Below, one piece after another: positions 7,500 to 59,316 of a stretch of 64,000 bases of DNA. Each line of letters begins with the position of its first letter. Positions within the stretch are counted from its first letter, which is position 1. The translations under genes and the position numbers were made by a program. Below the pieces are notes generated by a model that worked only from the letters and a program-made list of their open reading frames with translations, was not told the origin of the DNA and ran no database searches. Origin of the DNA: an uncultured Candidatus Saccharibacteria bacterium (GTDB lineage: Bacteria; Patescibacteriota; Minisyncoccia; Phycocordibacterales; UBA2163); the NCBI GenBank assembly GCA_964626705.1, contig CAZVGL010000001.1:87643-151642 (forward strand). The letters are read 5' to 3'.

Positions 7500-7610
7500 T
7501 GTTTCGTGAAATACATTTTTTCAAAAGTCCTCGGACTCCCTCGCTACGCTCGGCCAGACTTTTAAAAAAGTATATTTCACTCCACTAAGTATTAATGATA
7601 ATATGTTGTT

Positions 7611-8035: not shown

Positions 8036-9487
8036 ATGAAACAAAATTATTTATATATCCTGATAGGTGGGTTTGCAGTGGGTATATTATTTCGGTCATT
8101 TTTTAATCTAGGTTTATCTTTCTCAATCTTTCTAATCGCACTTTCGGGTGTGATTTTTCTTTTTTATTATTTAAATAAAAACAAAGGACAGTCCTTTGTG
8201 TGGATAAGTATCTTTATACTTTTTGCTGGTGTTGGAGTATTGCGGTTTGATGTTGCAGATTTAAATAAGGGAAGTCTTGTGCTTGATGAAGTAGTAGGAC
8301 AAGAGGTTGTGTTAGAGGGGGTTGTCGTAGATGAGCCAGATGAGAGGGAAAATAATACGAGGCTAATTGTTAATTTCATTGATACTGGTAGTAAGGCTAT
8401 TATCACAGCAGATATACACCCAAGGTTTTCATATGGAGATAAAGTGAGTATAAATGGGGAGTTATTGAAGCCTAAAAATTTTGTAGGAGAAGACGGTGAT
8501 AGTTTTGACTATGTATCATATCTTGCAAAAGATGAGATCTTTTATCAAATGTTTTATCCAAATGTTGAGCTCATCTCAAGCGGACATGGCAATATTATAA
8601 AGCGCAATTTATTTGCATTTAAGCGTGTGTTTCTGGAGAAAGTAAGTAGAGTGATTCCTGATCCGCAAAGCTCGCTTCTAGGTGGGCTGGTAGTTGGGGC
8701 AAAGCAGTCGCTTGGTGAGGAGCTCCAAGAAGATTTTAGAAAAACTGGGATTATACACATTGTTGTTCTTTCTGGATATAACGTGACAATTGTTGCAGAA
8801 GCAATAATGCGTTTCTTTTCTTTCTTGCCGTATATGTTTGGTATCTCCGTCGGGGTAGTGTCTATTATTTTCTTTGCTATTATGACCGGAGGGTCTGCGA
8901 CCATAGTCCGTGCTTCTATGATGGCCATATTTGTATTGCTTGCACGCGCTACAGGAAGGACGCAGACTATAACGCGAGCATTGTTCTTAGCGGGTTTTCT
9001 GATGCTCTTGCACAATCCAAAAATCTTAGTCTTTGATTCTTCTTTTCAGCTTTCATTTACTGCAACACTTGCGCTTATATATTTAGCACCGAAGATAGAA
9101 AAACATTTTCATTTAGTACCCACTAGGTTTCAGCTAAGAGAATTCGCAGTCGCAACAGTTGCGACGCAGATCTTTGTATTGCCGATGATTCTTTACAAGA
9201 TGGGAACGCTCTCACTCGTAGCGCTTCCGGTGAATCTTCTTATATTAGTATTTGTACCGATAACTATGCTTTTTGGTTTTGTCACAGGCATGCTCGGATT
9301 CATCTCTACAGTCTTCTCATTACCATTTGCATTTATAACAAATTTTCTACTTACGTATCAGCTTAAAGTTGTAGACATTTTCGCATCACTACCATTTGCA
9401 TCTATAGAAATAAACTACTTCCCGATATGGATAGCAGTCCTAATTTACATAATCTACGGATTATTTCTGTGGAAGTGGAAAGATTAA
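8036..9487 (+). CDS. comEC: ComEC/Rec2 DNA-uptake channel, core only (DUF4131 + competence domain, no MBL domain)
   Basis: It is a polytopic membrane protein. The conserved ComEC block LLGGLVVGAKQSLGEELQEDFRKTGIIHIVVLSGYNVTIV is present. It carries one in-frame palindromic insert at 8181-8199. Confidence 0.82.
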   Translation: MKQNYLYILIGGFAVGILFRSFFNLGLSFSIFLIALSGVIFLFYYLNKNKGQSFVWISIFILFAGVGVLRFDVADLNKGSLVLDEVVGQEVVLEGVVVDEPDERENNTRLIVNFIDTGSKAIITADIHPRFSYGDKVSINGELLKPKNFVGEDGDSFDYVSYLAKDEIFYQMFYPNVELISSGHGNIIKRNLFAFKRVFLEKVSRVIPDPQSSLLGGLVVGAKQSLGEELQEDFRKTGIIHIVVLSGYNVTIVAEAIMRFFSFLPYMFGISVGVVSIIFFAIMTGGSATIVRASMMAIFVLLARATGRTQTITRALFLAGFLMLLHNPKILVFDSSFQLSFTATLALIYLAPKIEKHFHLVPTRFQLREFAVATVATQIFVLPMILYKMGTLSLVALPVNLLILVFVPITMLFGFVTGMLGFISTVFSLPFAFITNFLLTYQLKVVDIFASLPFASIEINYFPIWIAVLIYIIYGLFLWKWKD

Positions 9488-10146: not shown

Positions 10147-11001
10147 ATGTCATATGCAAAAAAGAGTATAAAGCTTTATCTTTTACTAGGACTCTTCATA
10201 TTAAATATTTTTATTTGGTCTATTATTTTTGGATCTGAAGGTGGCAAGCTTACTGTTGCATTTTTAGATGTCGGGCAGGGGGACGCAGTATATATAGAAG
10301 CGCCAAATGGTAATCAAGTTCTTATAGATGCAGGAAGTAGTAAGGCGGTGTTGAGACAGTTGGGCAAAGTTATGCCGTTTTATGATCGCTCTATAGATGT
10401 AGTTATAGCGACTCACCCTGACAAAGATCATATCGGCGGGCTTCCAGATGTGCTAGCAAGATATGACGTGGATTTTATATTAGACTCTGGAAGAGCTGGT
10501 GCTAGTGCAACATATAAAGAACTTTATACGCTAGTAGATGCATTAGGCGTGCAAAGTATTCAAGCAAAACGTGGAATGGTAGTAATGTTAGATGACGATG
10601 TTCATTTAAATATTTTATTCCCTGATAGAGACGTGCCGGAGCTTGAGAGTAATACTGCATCTGTAATAGCACAGCTTGTGTATGGCGAGACGGAGTTTAT
10701 GCTCACGGGCGACTCGCCAAAAGCTATTGAGAGTTATTTGGTAATGTTAGACGGTGGAAACTTAGAAAGTGATGTATTAAAAGTAGGACACCATGGATCT
10801 AAGACTTCAAGCGCAGAGGTTTTTATAGGATATGTTCAACCAAAGTACTCTGTAATATCTGCAGACAGGAATAACAAATACGGACACCCACATAAAGAAG
10901 TCATAAATACATTAGAACAATTTGGCTCAGTAATATTAAGCACCGGAGATAGCGGAATAATAGTTTTTGAATCAGACGGAGAGAATGTTTTTCTTAAATA
11001 A
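10147..11001 (+). CDS. Stand-alone ComEC-type metallo-beta-lactamase-fold hydrolase with an N-terminal membrane anchor
   Basis: AFLDVGQGDAVYIEAPNGNQVLIDAG...ATHPDKDHIGG is the ComEC C-terminal MBL-domain signature. There is an N-terminal TM helix. Confidence 0.8.
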   Translation: MSYAKKSIKLYLLLGLFILNIFIWSIIFGSEGGKLTVAFLDVGQGDAVYIEAPNGNQVLIDAGSSKAVLRQLGKVMPFYDRSIDVVIATHPDKDHIGGLPDVLARYDVDFILDSGRAGASATYKELYTLVDALGVQSIQAKRGMVVMLDDDVHLNILFPDRDVPELESNTASVIAQLVYGETEFMLTGDSPKAIESYLVMLDGGNLESDVLKVGHHGSKTSSAEVFIGYVQPKYSVISADRNNKYGHPHKEVINTLEQFGSVILSTGDSGIIVFESDGENVFLK

Positions 11002-11033
11002 AAAATCTCCCTAATTAATTAGGGAGATTTTTA
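11001..11033. terminator. Bidirectional terminator between the MBL gene and rpmB
   Basis: AAAAATCTCCCTAATTAATTAGGGAGATTTTT is a perfect hairpin. Confidence 0.75.
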
Positions 11034-18725: not shown

Positions 18726-18757
18726 TATGATTAACCCAAGTGGTACAGTTAACTGTA
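18726..18757 (+). promoter_or_regulatory. Perfect 14-bp stem-loop in a divergent intergenic region
   Basis: CCCAAGTGGTACAG-TTAA-CTGTACCACTTGGG. There is no convergent gene for it to terminate. Confidence 0.4.
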
Positions 18758-18875
18758 CCACTTGGGACTTTCTGTTTAATTTGCTATTTTTTGAGATTTT
18801 CGTAGACTTGTGAGTAGTAAGTTGTTTTTATCAAGATCTAATTTTTTTAAGAAATTTAGAGAAGGAGGTTTTAAG

Positions 18876-21148: not shown

Positions 21149-21160
21149 ACTAAGATACAA

Positions 21161-21193
21161 AAACCCCGCAGGCTCAGCCTGCGGGGTTTTTGA
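21161..21193 (+). terminator. Strong rho-independent terminator directly after rpsJ
   Basis: CCCCGCAGGC-TCAG-CCTGCGGGG followed by TTTTTG. Confidence 0.85.
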
Positions 21194-24418: not shown

Positions 24419-24427
24419 TATTAAAAA

Positions 24428-24464
24428 CAAAAACACCGAGGTTTAACCTCGGTGTTTTTGTTTG
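24428..24464 (+). terminator. Rho-independent terminator after rplB
   Basis: AAACACCGAGG-TTTAA-CCTCGGTGTTT followed by TTG. Confidence 0.85.
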
Positions 24465-27550: not shown

Positions 27551-28099
27551 ATGATTCATATAAAAGATAGACAAAAGAATACGTTTGATAATTTGAAAGA
27601 GACTTTCAAATATACAAATGTGATGCAGACACCAAAGATAGAAAAGGTGGTTATTTCAGCTGGTATTGGTTCTGTAAAAGATAAAAACAAAATCAAGACT
27701 ATAAAAGATAGACTCGCACGTATAACAGGGCAGAAAGAAGCAGCAAGAGCTGCAAAGAAATCTATAGCTACATTTAAGACACGAGAGGGTGACATACTAG
27801 GGTATCAGGTTACACTACGAGGTCAGAGAATGTATGACTTCTTAGATAGGCTTATTCATATCGCAATACCACGAACAAGAGACTTTAGAGGGCTCGACAT
27901 AAAAGGTATAGATGAGATGGGCAACTTCACTATGGGTATTAAAGAACACACGATCTTCCCAGAAACTTCAGATGAAGATCTAAAAGATGTGTTTGGATTT
28001 GCTATAACTTTTGTTACAACAGCTAAAAATAAAGAAGAAGCAAAAGAGTATTTCAAGAGTTTAGGTTTCCCATTTAAAAAGGAAGAAGAAAAAGCTTAA
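27551..28099 (+). CDS. rplE: 50S ribosomal protein uL5
   Basis: L5 family; length 182 aa. Confidence 0.95.
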   Translation: MIHIKDRQKNTFDNLKETFKYTNVMQTPKIEKVVISAGIGSVKDKNKIKTIKDRLARITGQKEAARAAKKSIATFKTREGDILGYQVTLRGQRMYDFLDRLIHIAIPRTRDFRGLDIKGIDEMGNFTMGIKEHTIFPETSDEDLKDVFGFAITFVTTAKNKEEAKEYFKSLGFPFKKEEEKA

Positions 28100-28109
28100 A
28101 AATCAAAAT

Positions 28110-28152
28110 AAAACAACCCCGTCGCTTGCAAGCGACGGGGTTGTTTTATTTT
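28110..28152 (+). terminator. Strong terminator after rplE; the ribosomal cluster ends here
   Basis: AAAACAACCCCGTCGCTTGCAAGCGACGGGGTTGTTTT. Confidence 0.85.
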
Positions 28153-28238
28153 GATTTTGTGGTATTCTAATCAACAGTAAATTAGCCCAATTCATTATTG
28201 TAGTATTTTTAGTCTTTGTATAATATGGAGGTGTGAAG

Positions 28239-28568: not shown

Positions 28569-30884
28569 ATGAAGAGAGTTTTAATATTTTCAACATCATA
28601 TAGCCCTCTTATGGGCGGAGCGGAGGTCGCTTTAAAAGAGATAACAAATCGACTTGGATCGGAGGATTTTTGTATTACTGACACAAAGGACAGTCCTTTG
28701 TCACCACAAAGGACTGTCCTTTGTGGTGAACTTTGCTTTGACATGATTACGATGCGATATGACAAAGCTCTACCTAAGTTTGAAAGTATAGGGAATATAA
28801 ATGTACATAGAGTTTCATCTTCTAAATTATTCTTTCCATTTTTTGCATACTTTAAAGCGCTGAAGCTTCATAGGAAAAACAAATACGACATAGTATGGTC
28901 CATGATGGCAGGTAGGAACGGTTTCGCTAGTTTATTTTTCAAACTTACACATAAGAAAGTTAAATATCTTTTAACTCTACAAGAAGGAGATCGTTTAAGC
29001 TATCCAAAAGAACGTGCAGGGATTCTTTGGTTTGCAGTTGGCGGCTTGTTTAAAAAAGTTTTTACAGAAGCAGATTTTATACAGGTGATTTCTAAATACT
29101 TAGGTCAGTGGGCGCATGACATGGGGTATAGAGGTGAGATAGAGATTGTGCCAAATGGTGCAGATTTAGAAAAGTTTAAGGACGGTGACTCACAAAAAAA
29201 GAATCAAGAATTAAGAAAAGAGTTAGGGATTGGAGAAAATGAAAAAGTGATCATTACAACTTCAAGGCTTGTAGAGAAAAATGCTATCAATGACATTATA
29301 CGGACTCTTACATTTTTGCCTGATAATTATAAATTACTAATAGCTGGTAGGGGGGATCTTTTCTATGAACTTAGAAAACTTACAGATGATCTACAGCTTA
29401 CAAAAAGAGTGTTATTTCTTGGAAATATAGAACATGAGCAATTACCTCAATATTTGCACATTTCTGATGTATTTGTACGCCCATCGCTCTCTGAGGGACT
29501 TGGGATCTCGTTTATTGAGGCTATGGCGGCTTCTGTGCCTGTTATAGCGACCGAAGTAGGCGGAATCACCGATTTCCTTAAAAATGGCAAAACAGGGCTA
29601 TTTTGCGGTATCCATGACCCAAGAGGAATATCTGAGAAAATAGAGCTTTTGATGAAAGATAATACGTTACGTGAGGGTCTTATCAAGAATGCTTTAGAGA
29701 TGGTAGAGAAAACTTATGACTGGAACTTGATAGTAAAAGACATGAAAGAAAAAGTTTTTGATAAGTTTGAAGTAAGAAGAAGTGTTTTAATTACTACAGG
29801 AATATTCCCCCCAGATATCGGTGGGCCTGCTACGTATTCCAAATTGCTTTTAGATAAATTACCAAAACATGAGCTTGATGTAAAAGTGTTAAGTTTTGGT
29901 GAAGTAAGGCACATGCCGAAAATAATTCGGCATGTCGTTTACTTTTTTAAAATTTTAAACAGAAGTAGGGGTGTTGATATTATTTATGCACAAGATCCTG
30001 TAAGTGTAGGTTTTCCGTCTGCTGCTGCATCTTACGTTTTACGAAAGAAGTTTTTACTGAAAGTTGTAGGTGATTATGCATGGGAGCAGTTTAGTGTTGA
30101 AAATAATAATTTTATAACCCCAGAAGAATTTCAGAATGGAAAATATGATTTGAAAACAGAAGTAAGAAGAAAGATTGAACGATGGGTAGGAAATATTGCA
30201 AATAGAATAATCGTACCAAGTAAATACCTCAAAAAAATAGTCTCAATGTGGGAAGTGAAAGAGGAGAAGATACAAGTAATCCATAATGGTATCGTTTTGA
30301 ATAAAGATTATGGAGATAAAGAGACGTTAAGAAAGCTCCTGCAGTTTGAAGGGAATCTTATAATAACAACAGGGAGGCTTGTACCATGGAAAGGTTTTGA
30401 TACATTGATAAAAATCTTCCCAGAGATAAAAAAGAAATTTAAAGATGCTAAACTTATAATAGTTGGTTCTGGTCCACAAATGAATCATTTACAAAAACTT
30501 ATCGATGAAAAAGGCCTTGATGAAGATATAGCTCTAACTGGAAAGCTAGATAATGATTTAGTTATGCGATATAAAAAAGTTTCAGATGTGTTTGTATTAA
30601 ATACAGCTTATGAAGGTATGTCACATCATATACTGGAGGTTATGAATGTTGGTATACCCATAGTTACGACAAATGTTGGTGGTAATCCAGAACTTATTGA
30701 AAACGGAAAAACTGGTTTACTTACTGAGTATAATAATGAAAAAGAATTAGAAAAAGCTATTATAAGGTTATTAGATGATAAAGATTATGGTAACAGGCTT
30801 GCAGGAGAAGCTAAGAAAAAGGTGCAGGAGTTTAGTGAAGAAAGAATGATGGAAGAAACAGCTAATATGTTAAAAACAATATGA
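28569..30884 (+). CDS. Tandem double GT4-family glycosyltransferase (two GT-B modules, 771 aa)
   Basis: There are two EX7E-type GT1/GT4 C-terminal motifs (..SEGLGISFIEAMAASVPVIATEVGG.. and ..EGMSHHILEVMNVGIPIVTTNVGG..). A 42-bp in-frame double palindrome lies at 28683-28724. Confidence 0.8.
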   Translation: MKRVLIFSTSYSPLMGGAEVALKEITNRLGSEDFCITDTKDSPLSPQRTVLCGELCFDMITMRYDKALPKFESIGNINVHRVSSSKLFFPFFAYFKALKLHRKNKYDIVWSMMAGRNGFASLFFKLTHKKVKYLLTLQEGDRLSYPKERAGILWFAVGGLFKKVFTEADFIQVISKYLGQWAHDMGYRGEIEIVPNGADLEKFKDGDSQKKNQELRKELGIGENEKVIITTSRLVEKNAINDIIRTLTFLPDNYKLLIAGRGDLFYELRKLTDDLQLTKRVLFLGNIEHEQLPQYLHISDVFVRPSLSEGLGISFIEAMAASVPVIATEVGGITDFLKNGKTGLFCGIHDPRGISEKIELLMKDNTLREGLIKNALEMVEKTYDWNLIVKDMKEKVFDKFEVRRSVLITTGIFPPDIGGPATYSKLLLDKLPKHELDVKVLSFGEVRHMPKIIRHVVYFFKILNRSRGVDIIYAQDPVSVGFPSAAASYVLRKKFLLKVVGDYAWEQFSVENNNFITPEEFQNGKYDLKTEVRRKIERWVGNIANRIIVPSKYLKKIVSMWEVKEEKIQVIHNGIVLNKDYGDKETLRKLLQFEGNLIITTGRLVPWKGFDTLIKIFPEIKKKFKDAKLIIVGSGPQMNHLQKLIDEKGLDEDIALTGKLDNDLVMRYKKVSDVFVLNTAYEGMSHHILEVMNVGIPIVTTNVGGNPELIENGKTGLLTEYNNEKELEKAIIRLLDDKDYGNRLAGEAKKKVQEFSEERMMEETANMLKTI
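28683..28724. repeat. Two copies of the 19-bp palindrome ACAAAGGAC(A/T)GTCCTTTGT separated by CACC, in frame within the glycosyltransferase gene
   Basis: The sequence is a perfect inverted repeat with no stop codon in any frame. It encodes TKDSPLSPQRTVLC. Confidence 0.9.
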
Positions 30885-31963
30885 GAGTTTTAATGCTCAG
30901 CATAGACAAAAAAATATTTGAAGAAGAGTCTGATGCAAGAGCTCGTATGATAGAGTACGGGGAGCTTTTTGATGAGCTGCATATAGTCGTACATACGAAA
31001 AAAGGGTTTGATAATTCGCAAATATCTTCAAATGTATTTTTGTATCCAACAAACACTATGTCGAAGTTTTTTTATTTTTCTGGTGCATATAAGATATGTA
31101 AAAAGGTTATCGAAAATAATTCCATTGATATAATCACATCTCAAGACGCTTTTACGAACTTAGTTGCAGTTAGGCTAAAAAAGAAATTTAAAAATATTAA
31201 ACTTCAAGTACAAATACATACAGACTTTTTATCTAGAAAGTTTAGAAAAGAATCTATGAAGAATTTTTTTAGATACAAAGGTTATGTTAAGGGTATTAAA
31301 AGTGCAGATTACATTCGTGTAGTGTCAGAGAGTATGAAAAATAAGATAATAAGTAAGTTTGGTATAGAAACTTCAAAGATTGCTGCGCTCCCAATATTTG
31401 TAGACATAGAAAAAATAAAAAATACTACTATTACAGTAGATCTACATAAAAAGTATCCGCAGTTTGAGAAAATCATTCTGATGGCGTCTAGATTAGAGAA
31501 AGAAAAGAACATACAACTTGCAATATCTGCTATGGAAGATGTGGTAGAAAAATATCCAGAAACAGGACTTGTGATAGTTGGAAGTGGAAGTGAGTTAAAA
31601 AATTTAAAGTCTCGAGTATTAAACCTCAAATTACAAGACAATGTAATATTTGAAAGATGGCAAGATAAAGAAATAATTTATTCATATTACAAAACTACAG
31701 ACCTCTTTTTGATAACTTCAGATTATGAAGGGTATGGCCTAACTATAGTAGAAGCATTGGCTTCAAACTTGCCTGTACTTTCTACAGACGTGGGTGTGGC
31801 ACGAGAAGCTGGGGCATATATCACAGAGCGTGACAATTTGGCTCAGAATATAGTTAAATATATTGAAAGCAACCAAAAAACAGTAGAATTAACTAATTAT
31901 CCGTATAAAAACAAGCAAGAATATCTAGATAAATTTAAGCAATCCTTCATATGCGCCTTCTAA
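30881..31963 (+). CDS. GT4-family glycosyltransferase
   Basis: The C-terminal DLFLITSDYEGYGLTIVEALASNLPVLSTDVG is a GT-B motif. Confidence 0.75.
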   Translation: MRVLMLSIDKKIFEEESDARARMIEYGELFDELHIVVHTKKGFDNSQISSNVFLYPTNTMSKFFYFSGAYKICKKVIENNSIDIITSQDAFTNLVAVRLKKKFKNIKLQVQIHTDFLSRKFRKESMKNFFRYKGYVKGIKSADYIRVVSESMKNKIISKFGIETSKIAALPIFVDIEKIKNTTITVDLHKKYPQFEKIILMASRLEKEKNIQLAISAMEDVVEKYPETGLVIVGSGSELKNLKSRVLNLKLQDNVIFERWQDKEIIYSYYKTTDLFLITSDYEGYGLTIVEALASNLPVLSTDVGVAREAGAYITERDNLAQNIVKYIESNQKTVELTNYPYKNKQEYLDKFKQSFICAF

Positions 31964-32997
31964 TAGTTACACAAAAAGTAGACAAGAATGATGATAATCT
32001 TGGTTTTTTTCACCGATGGATTTTAGAGTTTGCAAAGCATTACGAGTTTATAACGATCATTGCACTTGGAGTTGGTGAGTACGATTTACCAGATAATGTT
32101 AAAGTTCTTTCTCTTGGTAAAGAGAGAGGTGCATCAAAGATAGAATATCTTATTAATTTCTATAAATACATCTGGAGTGAGCATAAAAACTACGACGCAG
32201 TATTTGTACATATGAATCCGATCTATGTAGTATTAGGCGGGCTGTTATGGAAGTCTTGGAAGAAAAAGGTAGGACTTTGGTATACGCATAAATCAGTTGA
32301 TACAAAACTTCGTATTGCAGAAGGCTGGGTGGACTATATTTTTACCGCGTCTGATAAAAGTTTTCGTATGCGAAGTAAAAAGCTGCATATAATGGGGCAT
32401 GGGATAGATGCAGACGAATTTAAAGTAAACAAAGGACTGTCCTTTGTCGCTACAAAAGACAGTCCTTTGTTAATATCTAACAAAATAAATATTTTACATA
32501 TTGGACGTATTTCTCGTTCCAAAAATATACATTTATTTGTTAAGTTTGCTGAAATACTAAAAAACAAAGGAGTAAAGTTTCAGATAAATATCGTTGGTGG
32601 TGCAATAACAAAAGAAGATAAAGGATATTTGGAAATATTACAGAAAAATATTTTAAATAAAGAGCTGGCAGAATATTTTAATTTTCTTGGACCTATGGCG
32701 CCACATGAAAGAAGTTTTCGTTTTATAGAAAATGATATTTTTATAAACCTAAGCGATACAGGAAGTATGGATAAGACGGTGCTTGAAGCAATGCTTTCTG
32801 GAATACAAGTCTTGGTGTCAAATGAAGCATTCATGAATATCTTGCCAAGTGAAAACAAAACAACAAAAGATCCAGAAAGGATCGCGAAAGATATACAGCG
32901 GATTATAGGTGTTACACCGAACCCATCTCTGCGAGGATATGTATTAAAAGAACATAATCTTAGTAATTTAATATTAGCAATAGTTAAAACATATTAA
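31951..32997 (+). CDS. GT4-like glycosyltransferase
   Basis: The C-terminal GSMDKTVLEAMLSGIQVLVSNE motif is present. A 42-bp double palindrome lies at 32438-32479. Confidence 0.65.
   Translation: MRLLIVTQKVDKNDDNLGFFHRWILEFAKHYEFITIIALGVGEYDLPDNVKVLSLGKERGASKIEYLINFYKYIWSEHKNYDAVFVHMNPIYVVLGGLLWKSWKKKVGLWYTHKSVDTKLRIAEGWVDYIFTASDKSFRMRSKKLHIMGHGIDADEFKVNKGLSFVATKDSPLLISNKINILHIGRISRSKNIHLFVKFAEILKNKGVKFQINIVGGAITKEDKGYLEILQKNILNKELAEYFNFLGPMAPHERSFRFIENDIFINLSDTGSMDKTVLEAMLSGIQVLVSNEAFMNILPSENKTTKDPERIAKDIQRIIGVTPNPSLRGYVLKEHNLSNLILAIVKTY
32438..32479. repeat. Two copies of the same palindrome family (ACAAAGGACTGTCCTTTGT, CGCT, ACAAAAGACAGTCCTTTGT), in frame within the glycosyltransferase gene
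   Basis: It encodes NKGLSFVATKDSPL. The second copy has one mismatch. Confidence 0.9.
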
Positions 32998-59264: not shown

Positions 59265-59280
59265 TTTTGTCATTCGGATA

Positions 59281-59316
59281 AAACAAAGCCCCGTATATAC
59301 GGGGCTTTGTTTTTGT
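59281..59316 (+). terminator. Rho-independent terminator
   Basis: AAACAAAGCCCCGTATATACGGGGCTTTGTTTTTG. Confidence 0.8.

Follow-up and report, generated by a model that had tools for sequence, protein, structure and literature searches.

Candidate repetitive extragenic palindromes and an associated Y1 transposase family in Patescibacteria

Why would one and the same perfect palindrome recur inside intact protein-coding genes? The question is raised by a stretch of 64,000 nucleotides from an uncultured Candidatus Saccharibacteria bacterium (assembly GCA_964626705.1, contig CAZVGL010000001.1, positions 87,643 to 151,642), hereafter called the window, in which a 19-bp inverted repeat is found within three genes. 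The original prediction had taken this repeat for a mobile, stop-free palindromic element comparable to the Rickettsia palindromic elements (RPEs). That view is supported by the homologs that lack the repeat at two of the three loci, by its dispersal over other genomes and by its association with genes for Y1 transposases that resemble the REP-associated tyrosine transposases (RAYTs), REP standing for repetitive extragenic palindrome. We consider it quite probable that the palindrome is a REP-type element and that its inverted doublets are of the REPIN type (REP doublets forming hairpins), moved or copied as single-stranded DNA (ssDNA) by a RAYT-like HUH/Y1 transposase that is encoded elsewhere in the genome. 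Most likely, therefore, this is a REP/REPIN-RAYT-type system, new for the Patescibacteria, in which we infer transposition itself by analogy with systems studied in other bacteria.

Palindromes within three genes of the window

The repeat unit has a perfect 9-N-9 symmetry, with an 18-nt core within its 19 bp (as an oligonucleotide, TACAAAGGACNGTCCTTTGTA). Exact copies of ACAAAGGACNGTCCTTTGT are located at 8181-8199 and 28683-28701, both with A as the centre base, and at 28706-28724 and 32429-32447, both with T, and a one-mismatch copy, ACAAAAGACAGTCCTTTGT, lies at 32452-32470. The presence of the palindrome at three in-gene loci could thus be confirmed, with four exact copies and one imperfect copy, all five of them inside intact open reading frames (ORFs; 8036-9487, 28569-30884 and 31951-32997). 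In 100 dinucleotide-preserving shuffles of the window no match was obtained, even when two mismatches were allowed. The loci are composed as follows (units without a strand are given by position):

28569-30884, plus strand: host gene, tandem GT4 glycosyltransferase of 771 aa, intact ORF
28674-28736, plus strand: 63-bp (21-codon) insertion relative to the empty site of the homolog L147, alternatively placed at 28669-28731
28683-28701: first REP-like unit of the GT4-gene doublet, ACAAAGGACAGTCCTTTGT, read as TKDSPL (sequence search and shuffles)
28706-28724: second REP-like unit, with T at its centre and in inverted orientation to the first, read as QRTVLC; the palindrome here extends to 29 bp (28701-28729)
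31951-32997, plus strand: host gene, glycosyltransferase of 348 aa, identical to P0121
32429-32470: REPIN-like doublet in this second glycosyltransferase gene, consisting of an exact unit with T at its centre, followed after the spacer CGCT by a one-mismatch unit with A at its centre, read as NKGLSFVATKDSPL
8036-9487, plus strand: host gene, ComEC/Rec2 family protein of 483 aa
8181-8199: lone REP-like unit of the ComEC/Rec2-like gene, encoding NKGQSFV, in a short loop before a transmembrane segment

The copies are read through in frame and encode the peptides that had been quoted for them. The second doublet does lie in a glycosyltransferase gene and does have a 4-nt spacer, as had been described, but it had been placed at 32438-32479, nine bases from its true position, and its second unit is imperfect. 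The 19-mer is indeed free of stop codons in all six frames, yet an AA directly following it creates the stop TTG-TAA, which terminates several ORFs of other genomes. Because the two doublets of the window have a spacer of 4 nt and complementary centre bases (A then T in the first, T then A in the second), each doublet is a long hairpin by itself. Folded as ssDNA, the doublets reached -21 kcal/mol in the GT4 gene and -18 kcal/mol (-18.1) in the second glycosyltransferase gene, with z-scores around -9; over the folds of the repeat z ranged from -4 to -9. An Rfam scan of positions 1-64000 recovered no family at the gathering score, and hence no tRNA, riboswitch or leader.

The clearest insertion is found in the tandem GT4 gene. 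Between ...SEDFC and FDMIT... the window protein has 21 residues, ITDTKDSPLSPQRTVLCGELC, that are missing from homologs of 71-77% identity, and in one of these (L147, 76% identical) the empty site could be compared at the DNA level. It reads GGAGGATT-TTTGC-TTTGAT, where the filled site of the window reads GGAGGATT-TTTGT, followed by 58 bp and then TTTGC-TTTGAC. The alignment contains one clean gap of 63 bp, the edges of which are formed by a 5-bp direct repeat, TTTGY, and since TTTGT (28669-28673) and TTTGC (28732-28736) repeat each other at the junctions, the insertion can equally well be placed at 28674-28736 or at 28669-28731. The insert is therefore larger than the 42 bp and 14 residues that had been proposed. 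As an ssDNA hairpin, the 63-bp insertion folds with -23.5 kcal/mol (z -7.8). In the AlphaFold model of the N-terminal GT4 domain (mean pLDDT, the per-residue confidence measure, of 91.4) residues 35-52 have a pLDDT below 50 and are without secondary structure, between a helix (17-29) and a strand (55-62), which makes the insert, as modelled, a disordered surface loop. According to the gene table, the double GT4 ortholog in a syntenic relative carrying P0122 (79% identity) counts 737 aa, compared to 771 aa in the window.

Hairpin inserts of other kinds were observed at exactly the same site in two GT4 homologs. One of these (L148, 2160-2200) contains a different hairpin, CCGCCAGAGGCGG plus CCAGCCTCGGGCTGG, and the other (L149, 8110-8145) an imperfect one, the inserts coming after GATTTTT or AAATTTT. 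This suggests a hotspot, or a permissive loop that is used by several repeat families.

In the second glycosyltransferase, homologs of 66-79% identity show a 10-residue alignment gap opposite GLSFVATKDS. The doublet occupies residues ~163-177, in a variable linker that joins two domains, so that the earlier statement that the inserts interrupt N-terminal glycosyltransferase sequence does not hold for this mid-protein position. At both loci the peptide, too, is missing from homologs that lack the palindrome and, as far as alignments can tell, two of the three window loci are shown to be lineage-specific insertions. Independent assemblies from four sources (JGI, ENA, Logan and NCBI) yielded the protein P0121, insert included, in identical form on at least 24 contigs, of up to 297 kb, and the four contigs that were fetched equal the window base for base. 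Samples containing this population include JGI 3300038363/4, ERZ4198920 and SRR12939088. For ComEC the nearest homologs are only 56-58% identical and the length of the loop varies in the alignment; an insertion is neither shown nor excluded there. Two ComEC homologs, P0262 and P0269, contain inserts of 20-30 aa within the short loop that holds the single palindrome of the window.

Distribution of the palindrome over other genomes

The exact 19-mer was sought in a database with one genome per species, 596 Gb in total. It was recovered at 79 sites, on 62 stretches from 31 assemblies, where around 9 are expected by chance (596e9/4^18); as in the window, with five copies against none in the shuffles, the frequency is far above expectation. 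The hosts with multiple copies were almost all metagenome-assembled genomes (MAGs) of Patescibacteria, with a GC content of 32-56%, labelled as Saccharibacteria, Adlerbacteria, Kaiserbacteria, Taylorbacteria, Howlettbacteria, Paceibacteria or Minisyncoccia. Saccharibacteria and Adlerbacteria are separate candidate phyla in the NCBI taxonomy, and the host MAGs as a whole span several lineages at the level of phylum or class. Two multi-copy MAGs are labelled Pseudomonadales and Bdellovibrionales, by the label of the record only, and the lone copies in Hamadaea, Corynebacterium and similar hosts are compatible with chance. The best-sampled MAGs contain roughly 6-13 exact copies.

The surroundings of the copies vary between genomes. 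Flanking bases commonly make the palindrome one or two pairs longer, with T at -1 in 55 and A at +1 in 52 of the 83 copies. These extensions differ by genome, for instance ttta...taaa or tgta...taca, as expected if each genome had amplified its copies from a master copy. Of the 83 copies, 46 (55%) fall in open frames of at least 150 aa; for random positions drawn from that DNA the share is 84%. The intragenic copies make use of all three reading phases, the one that yields QRTVLC being rare (5 of 46); both the depletion from long ORFs and the scarcity of this phase fit selection after insertion.

Neighbouring copies tend to be arranged as inverted pairs, given that the centre bases were complementary in 13 of 20 pairs where 25% would be expected. 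The spacing within doublets varies from 3 to 36 nt. A doublet was also recovered within the uvrC genes of two loci (L011, ~2540-2600; L026, 513-553) and is absent from a Saccharibacteria homolog (L032); it sits just before the conserved KPCFxxHxxxCPGxC motif of UvrC. One cluster, with seven copies within 1.3 kb, is that of locus L042. Upstream of its RAYT-like gene an 81-bp composite, made up of a palindrome, 43 bp and a second palindrome, occurs twice within 330 bp (237-317 and 485-565) and looks like a transposable element of the miniature inverted-repeat type (MITE) with the palindromes as its ends. A reading of the seven copies as an array of the CRISPR kind was rejected, as the spacing is irregular and the region consists of a transposase gene and the two composites.

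The associated Y1 transposase family

To specify the genes that accompany the palindrome, the ORFs at the palindrome loci (8 kb each) were clustered all against all. The top cluster consists of one family of proteins of 215-235 aa, with members in six genomes, which are situated relative to the repeat as follows:

L010: copies within ~30 bp of the transposase gene on both sides, its TAA stop overlapping the flank of the repeat
L022: copies within ~30 bp of the transposase gene (216-aa protein) on both sides, its TAA stop overlapping the flank of the repeat
L042: copies on both sides (upstream at ~30 bp from the start, downstream overlapping the stop) and one inside; the ORF ends in ...TKDSPL and its stop within the repeat
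L020: a copy adjoins the transposase gene
L038: copies adjoin the transposase gene
L040: degenerate copies only at the gene; the sole exact copy lies ~1.9 kb upstream

The family matches the Pfam entry Y1_Tnp (PF01797, 'Transposase IS200 like') above the gathering score, with E-values of 8e-13 to 1e-5, and all six members match the NCBIfam model 'REP-associated tyrosine transposase' (NF047646; best E 3e-14). The HUH motif (HFH, in PNHFHLL) and a Y-x-H-L-N-P motif are invariant. The transposases that share the identical REP are only 32-40% identical to the protein of L022.

In three loci (L038, L040 and L042) the gene is located upstream of rplJ-rplL, and L010 and L022 have neighbours in common. 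On the basis of gene order, the rplJ-rplL neighbourhood hints at vertical inheritance of a single-copy transposase gene. The window contains neither rplJ/rplL nor any other of the genes seen next to the transposase in other genomes. Two further loci (L057 and L059) have a palindrome and no transposase gene at the spot upstream of rplJ-rplL, and in four of these five loci (L038, L040, L042, L057 and L059) a large, secreted-looking protein is encoded between the RAYT-like gene or palindrome and rplJ-rplL. In addition, a palindrome or its relic was observed inside the transposase coding sequence (CDS) of four loci at one alignment position, around codon 54, in proteins that are ~40% identical: L020 (~757-775, peptide KGPSF), L038 (~7505-7525, KGQSF), L040 (~2130-2150, KGRSS) and L042 (765-783, KGQSFV). 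This internal copy could be an ancient insertion that was kept at the DNA level, or an autoregulatory site.

The association was also approached in reverse, by scanning 80 metagenomic homologs of the transposase (30-57% identity) for flanking palindromes. At least 15 of the 80 are bracketed on both sides by a perfect palindrome of their own, and many more carry one on a single side, so that the architecture of a gene bracketed by its cognate hairpin is general for the family. The cognate palindromes, such as AAAAGGTTAAACCTTTT, ACTGCAAGGTCCAACCTTGCAGT, CCTGCAGGGCCAGGCCCTGCAGG and TGTGAAAGGACGGACCTTTCACA, have a common design: a variable stem, (A/G)GG, 3-5 nt, CC(T/C) and again a variable stem. 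The palindrome of the window is, to judge from this design, one variant of a family-wide theme. In a rough neighbour-joining tree the transposases with the window-type REP appear in at least three places, among relatives with other REPs, a scatter that could reflect ancestral retention or exchange.

Several other palindromes were observed in the window. An intergenic, perfect palindrome of 39 bp at 24425-24463, AAACAAAAACACCGAGGTTTAACCTCGGTGTTTTTGTTT, has a single copy in the window and its core, CGAGGTTtAACCTCG, resembles the cognate palindromes of L128, L141 and L109; it may represent another type of REP, or simply a terminator. Further long perfect palindromes (32-60 bp) are located at 28099-28158, 21158-21192, 59280-59313, 11001-11032 and 18735-18766. 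Those starting at 28099 (60 bp and loop-free), 21158 and 59280 resemble bidirectional terminators, with a GC-rich stem between an A-run and a T-run.

Competing explanations and comparison with known systems

Several observations weigh against the assignment to a REP/REPIN-RAYT system. The DNA-level comparison with an empty site is a single one, so that the TTTGY repeat or target counts as one observation, and the copy in comEC is without a clear gain in length relative to homologs. The score of the transposases with NF047646 (50 bits) stays under the curated cut-off of 80, and PDB searches by sequence and by profile gave only marginal similarity to the solved TnpA(REP) (PDB 4er8, E 0.64) and to ISDra2 TnpA (E 0.02). 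A tblastn search with the six transposases recovered no Y1/RAYT gene from the 64-kb window, and among the 80 metagenomic homologs the 19-mer of the window occurs at one, on both sides and with two mismatches. As to the repeat itself, the palindromes of classical REPs are imperfect and their location is mostly extragenic, whereas here the symmetry is perfect and more than half of the copies (46 of 83; five of five in the window) are intragenic. The classical REP tag GTAG/CGTC is absent: of the 83 copies, no more than 7 and 10 form GTAG or CTAC at their junctions.

Within the REP/REPIN-RAYT assignment, a more far-reaching version can be formulated. Perhaps the lineage is ancient and widely conserved, one 18-nt core having been kept across deep branches of the Patescibacteria because it was inherited together with a RAYT-like gene, present in single copy near rplJ-rplL, that carries a REP in its CDS, and has been a regular source of in-frame peptide inserts. 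We regard this version as tentative and on balance doubtful. The combination of an identical REP with transposases of such limited identity, scattered over the tree, would in that case reflect either a hairpin under extreme constraint or the exchange between lineages of REPs or entire REPtrons (a REP/REPIN together with its RAYT).

A different possibility is that the repeats are miniature derivatives, similar to palindrome-associated transposable elements (PATEs) or MITEs, of an active, autonomous insertion sequence (IS) of the IS200/IS605 type, in which case the palindromes would be the end hairpins of the IS and no domesticated RAYT would be involved. The Pfam model for IS200-like transposases, matched above its cut-off where the RAYT equivalog was matched only below, is in line with this, and so are the palindromes that bracket the gene as in an IS and the two MITE-like composites of L042. 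We nevertheless consider it unlikely. Among the palindrome loci there was one transposase gene per assembly (a count over 8-kb loci, which is not definitive for copy number), and the synteny upstream of rplJ-rplL in three loci, together with the common neighbours of L010 and L022, suggests vertical inheritance in single copy. Moreover, at 215-235 aa the proteins are longer than IS200 TnpA (~130-150 aa), and the flanking hairpins are identical instead of forming distinct left and right ends.

Considerably less probable is the operator that had been offered as an alternative, or more generally a site for a dimeric DNA-binding protein, including nucleoid or partition sites of the parS, matS or NBS (Noc-binding site) type, that arose by point mutation. 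The perfect symmetry and the strict conservation of the 18-nt core across divergent lineages would suit such a site, and the copy at a conserved position inside the transposase gene, with others flanking it, could serve autoregulation. The sites were, however, inserted and not substituted, as is clear from the 63-bp gap with its direct repeat and from the 10-aa gap. In addition, the spacing of the doublets is variable, the clusters and the genome-specific flanks look like amplification from a master copy, and no gene for a helix-turn-helix protein is consistently adjacent, the recurrent neighbour being the Y1 transposase.

It is hardly credible that the palindrome is a DNA-uptake signal for competence of the Patescibacteria, like the DNA uptake sequence (DUS) of Neisseria or the uptake signal sequence (USS) of Haemophilus. 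Patescibacteria are thought to rely on DNA uptake, one copy lies inside comEC and the sequence is common to many members of the group. The density of DUS and USS is around one per kb, though, and that of the palindrome is low, with 5 copies in 64 kb and some 6-13 in the best-sampled MAGs; uptake signals need not be palindromic, are not gained as 63-bp insertions and leave the association with a Y1 transposase unexplained. Finally, a chance, assembly or sequencing artefact, for which nothing but the shortness of the motif would speak, can practically be dismissed considering the zero matches in the shuffles, the identical sequence in at least 24 independent assemblies and the restriction to Patescibacteria across unrelated studies.

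Taking the REP/REPIN-RAYT system as the best explanation, a course of events may be proposed after the example of E. coli TnpA(REP) and of the TnpA proteins of IS608 and ISDra2. The Y1 transposase would bind the hairpin on ssDNA, and would cut and rejoin the strand at the foot of the hairpin. New copies might then land 3' of a TTTG-like motif, as the single empty site suggests; TTTG is also formed by the last four bases that precede the terminal T of the repeat. Intragenic copies would persist only when they keep the frame, are free of stops and reside in a tolerant segment, such as the predicted surface loop of the GT4 protein. Most likely, the copies in the window are tolerated passengers that became fixed in the population, rather than functional protein modules.

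A system of this kind would extend REP/REPIN-RAYT biology to the Patescibacteria and account in a simple way for some odd short inserts in proteins of the candidate phyla radiation (CPR). Segments like TKDxPL, KGxSF and QRTVLC could be recognised as repeat-derived by annotators and structure predictors. The combination of a conserved 18-nt core with divergent transposases would furthermore make a clean system for the study of hairpin recognition by Y1 transposases, and would permit testing the vertical inheritance of such elements over very long times.

Among the known systems, the IS200/IS605 family has in common with the elements described here the Y1 HUH fold (PF01797) and the presence of hairpins at the ends. 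The ssDNA insertion of IS608 and ISDra2 takes place 3' of a specific short motif, and the TTTGY junction is compatible with such motif-directed insertion. The differences are that the flanking hairpins are identical in our case, that the gene is apparently single-copy and syntenic, and that the dispersed units consist of the hairpins alone. The likeness to the Rickettsia RPEs lies in the in-frame palindromic inserts in intact ORFs of a reduced genome, which are absent from orthologs; it is a functional resemblance and no relation in sequence is claimed. RPE-1 is ~100-150 bp long and is not known to be related in sequence to the element in the window or to have a demonstrated transposase partner, whereas the units described here measure 19-23 bp and a Y1 transposase partner can be identified for them in related genomes.

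The closest parallel is formed by the REP/REPIN-RAYT systems. Nunvar in 2010 and Ton-Hoang in 2012 reportedly described REP/RAYT systems in Proteobacteria. The combination of REP/REPIN and RAYT, the 'REPtron', is on record for this phylum (Bertels & Rainey 2011, PMC3116915; Di Nocera 2013, PMC3733652), and in the literature consulted the association with REPINs is tied to RAYTs of Groups 2 and 3, with gammaproteobacterial examples. Intragenic REPs are known as well: they are mostly dimers that encode 20-30 aa and are frequent in repair genes such as those for excinuclease (PMC3733652), and the short Rickettsia elements RPE-4 and RPE-6 have been classed among them (Di Nocera 2013, PMC3733652). 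The system described here agrees in having a short, dispersed hairpin repeat in multiple copies, often as inverted doublets, and an HUH/Y1 gene flanked by repeats, in related genomes rather than in the window; the doublet in UvrC matches the reported bias of intragenic REPs towards excision-repair genes. It differs in its core of 18 nt, which is identical across lineages at the level of phylum or class where other REPs are genus-specific, in the greater length of the transposase (215-235 aa) and its score below the RAYT cut-off, and in the host group, the Patescibacteria. In the literature searched no paper linked RAYT or REPIN to Patescibacteria, and a search for the exact palindrome sequence returned only unrelated primer lists. 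The earlier suggestion of an uncharacterised mobile element was essentially right, except that elements of this type are already known from other bacteria. No description seems to exist of the family or of its host group, and the element itself, including the in-frame intragenic dimers, appears to be of a kind known from other bacteria rather than a new mechanism.

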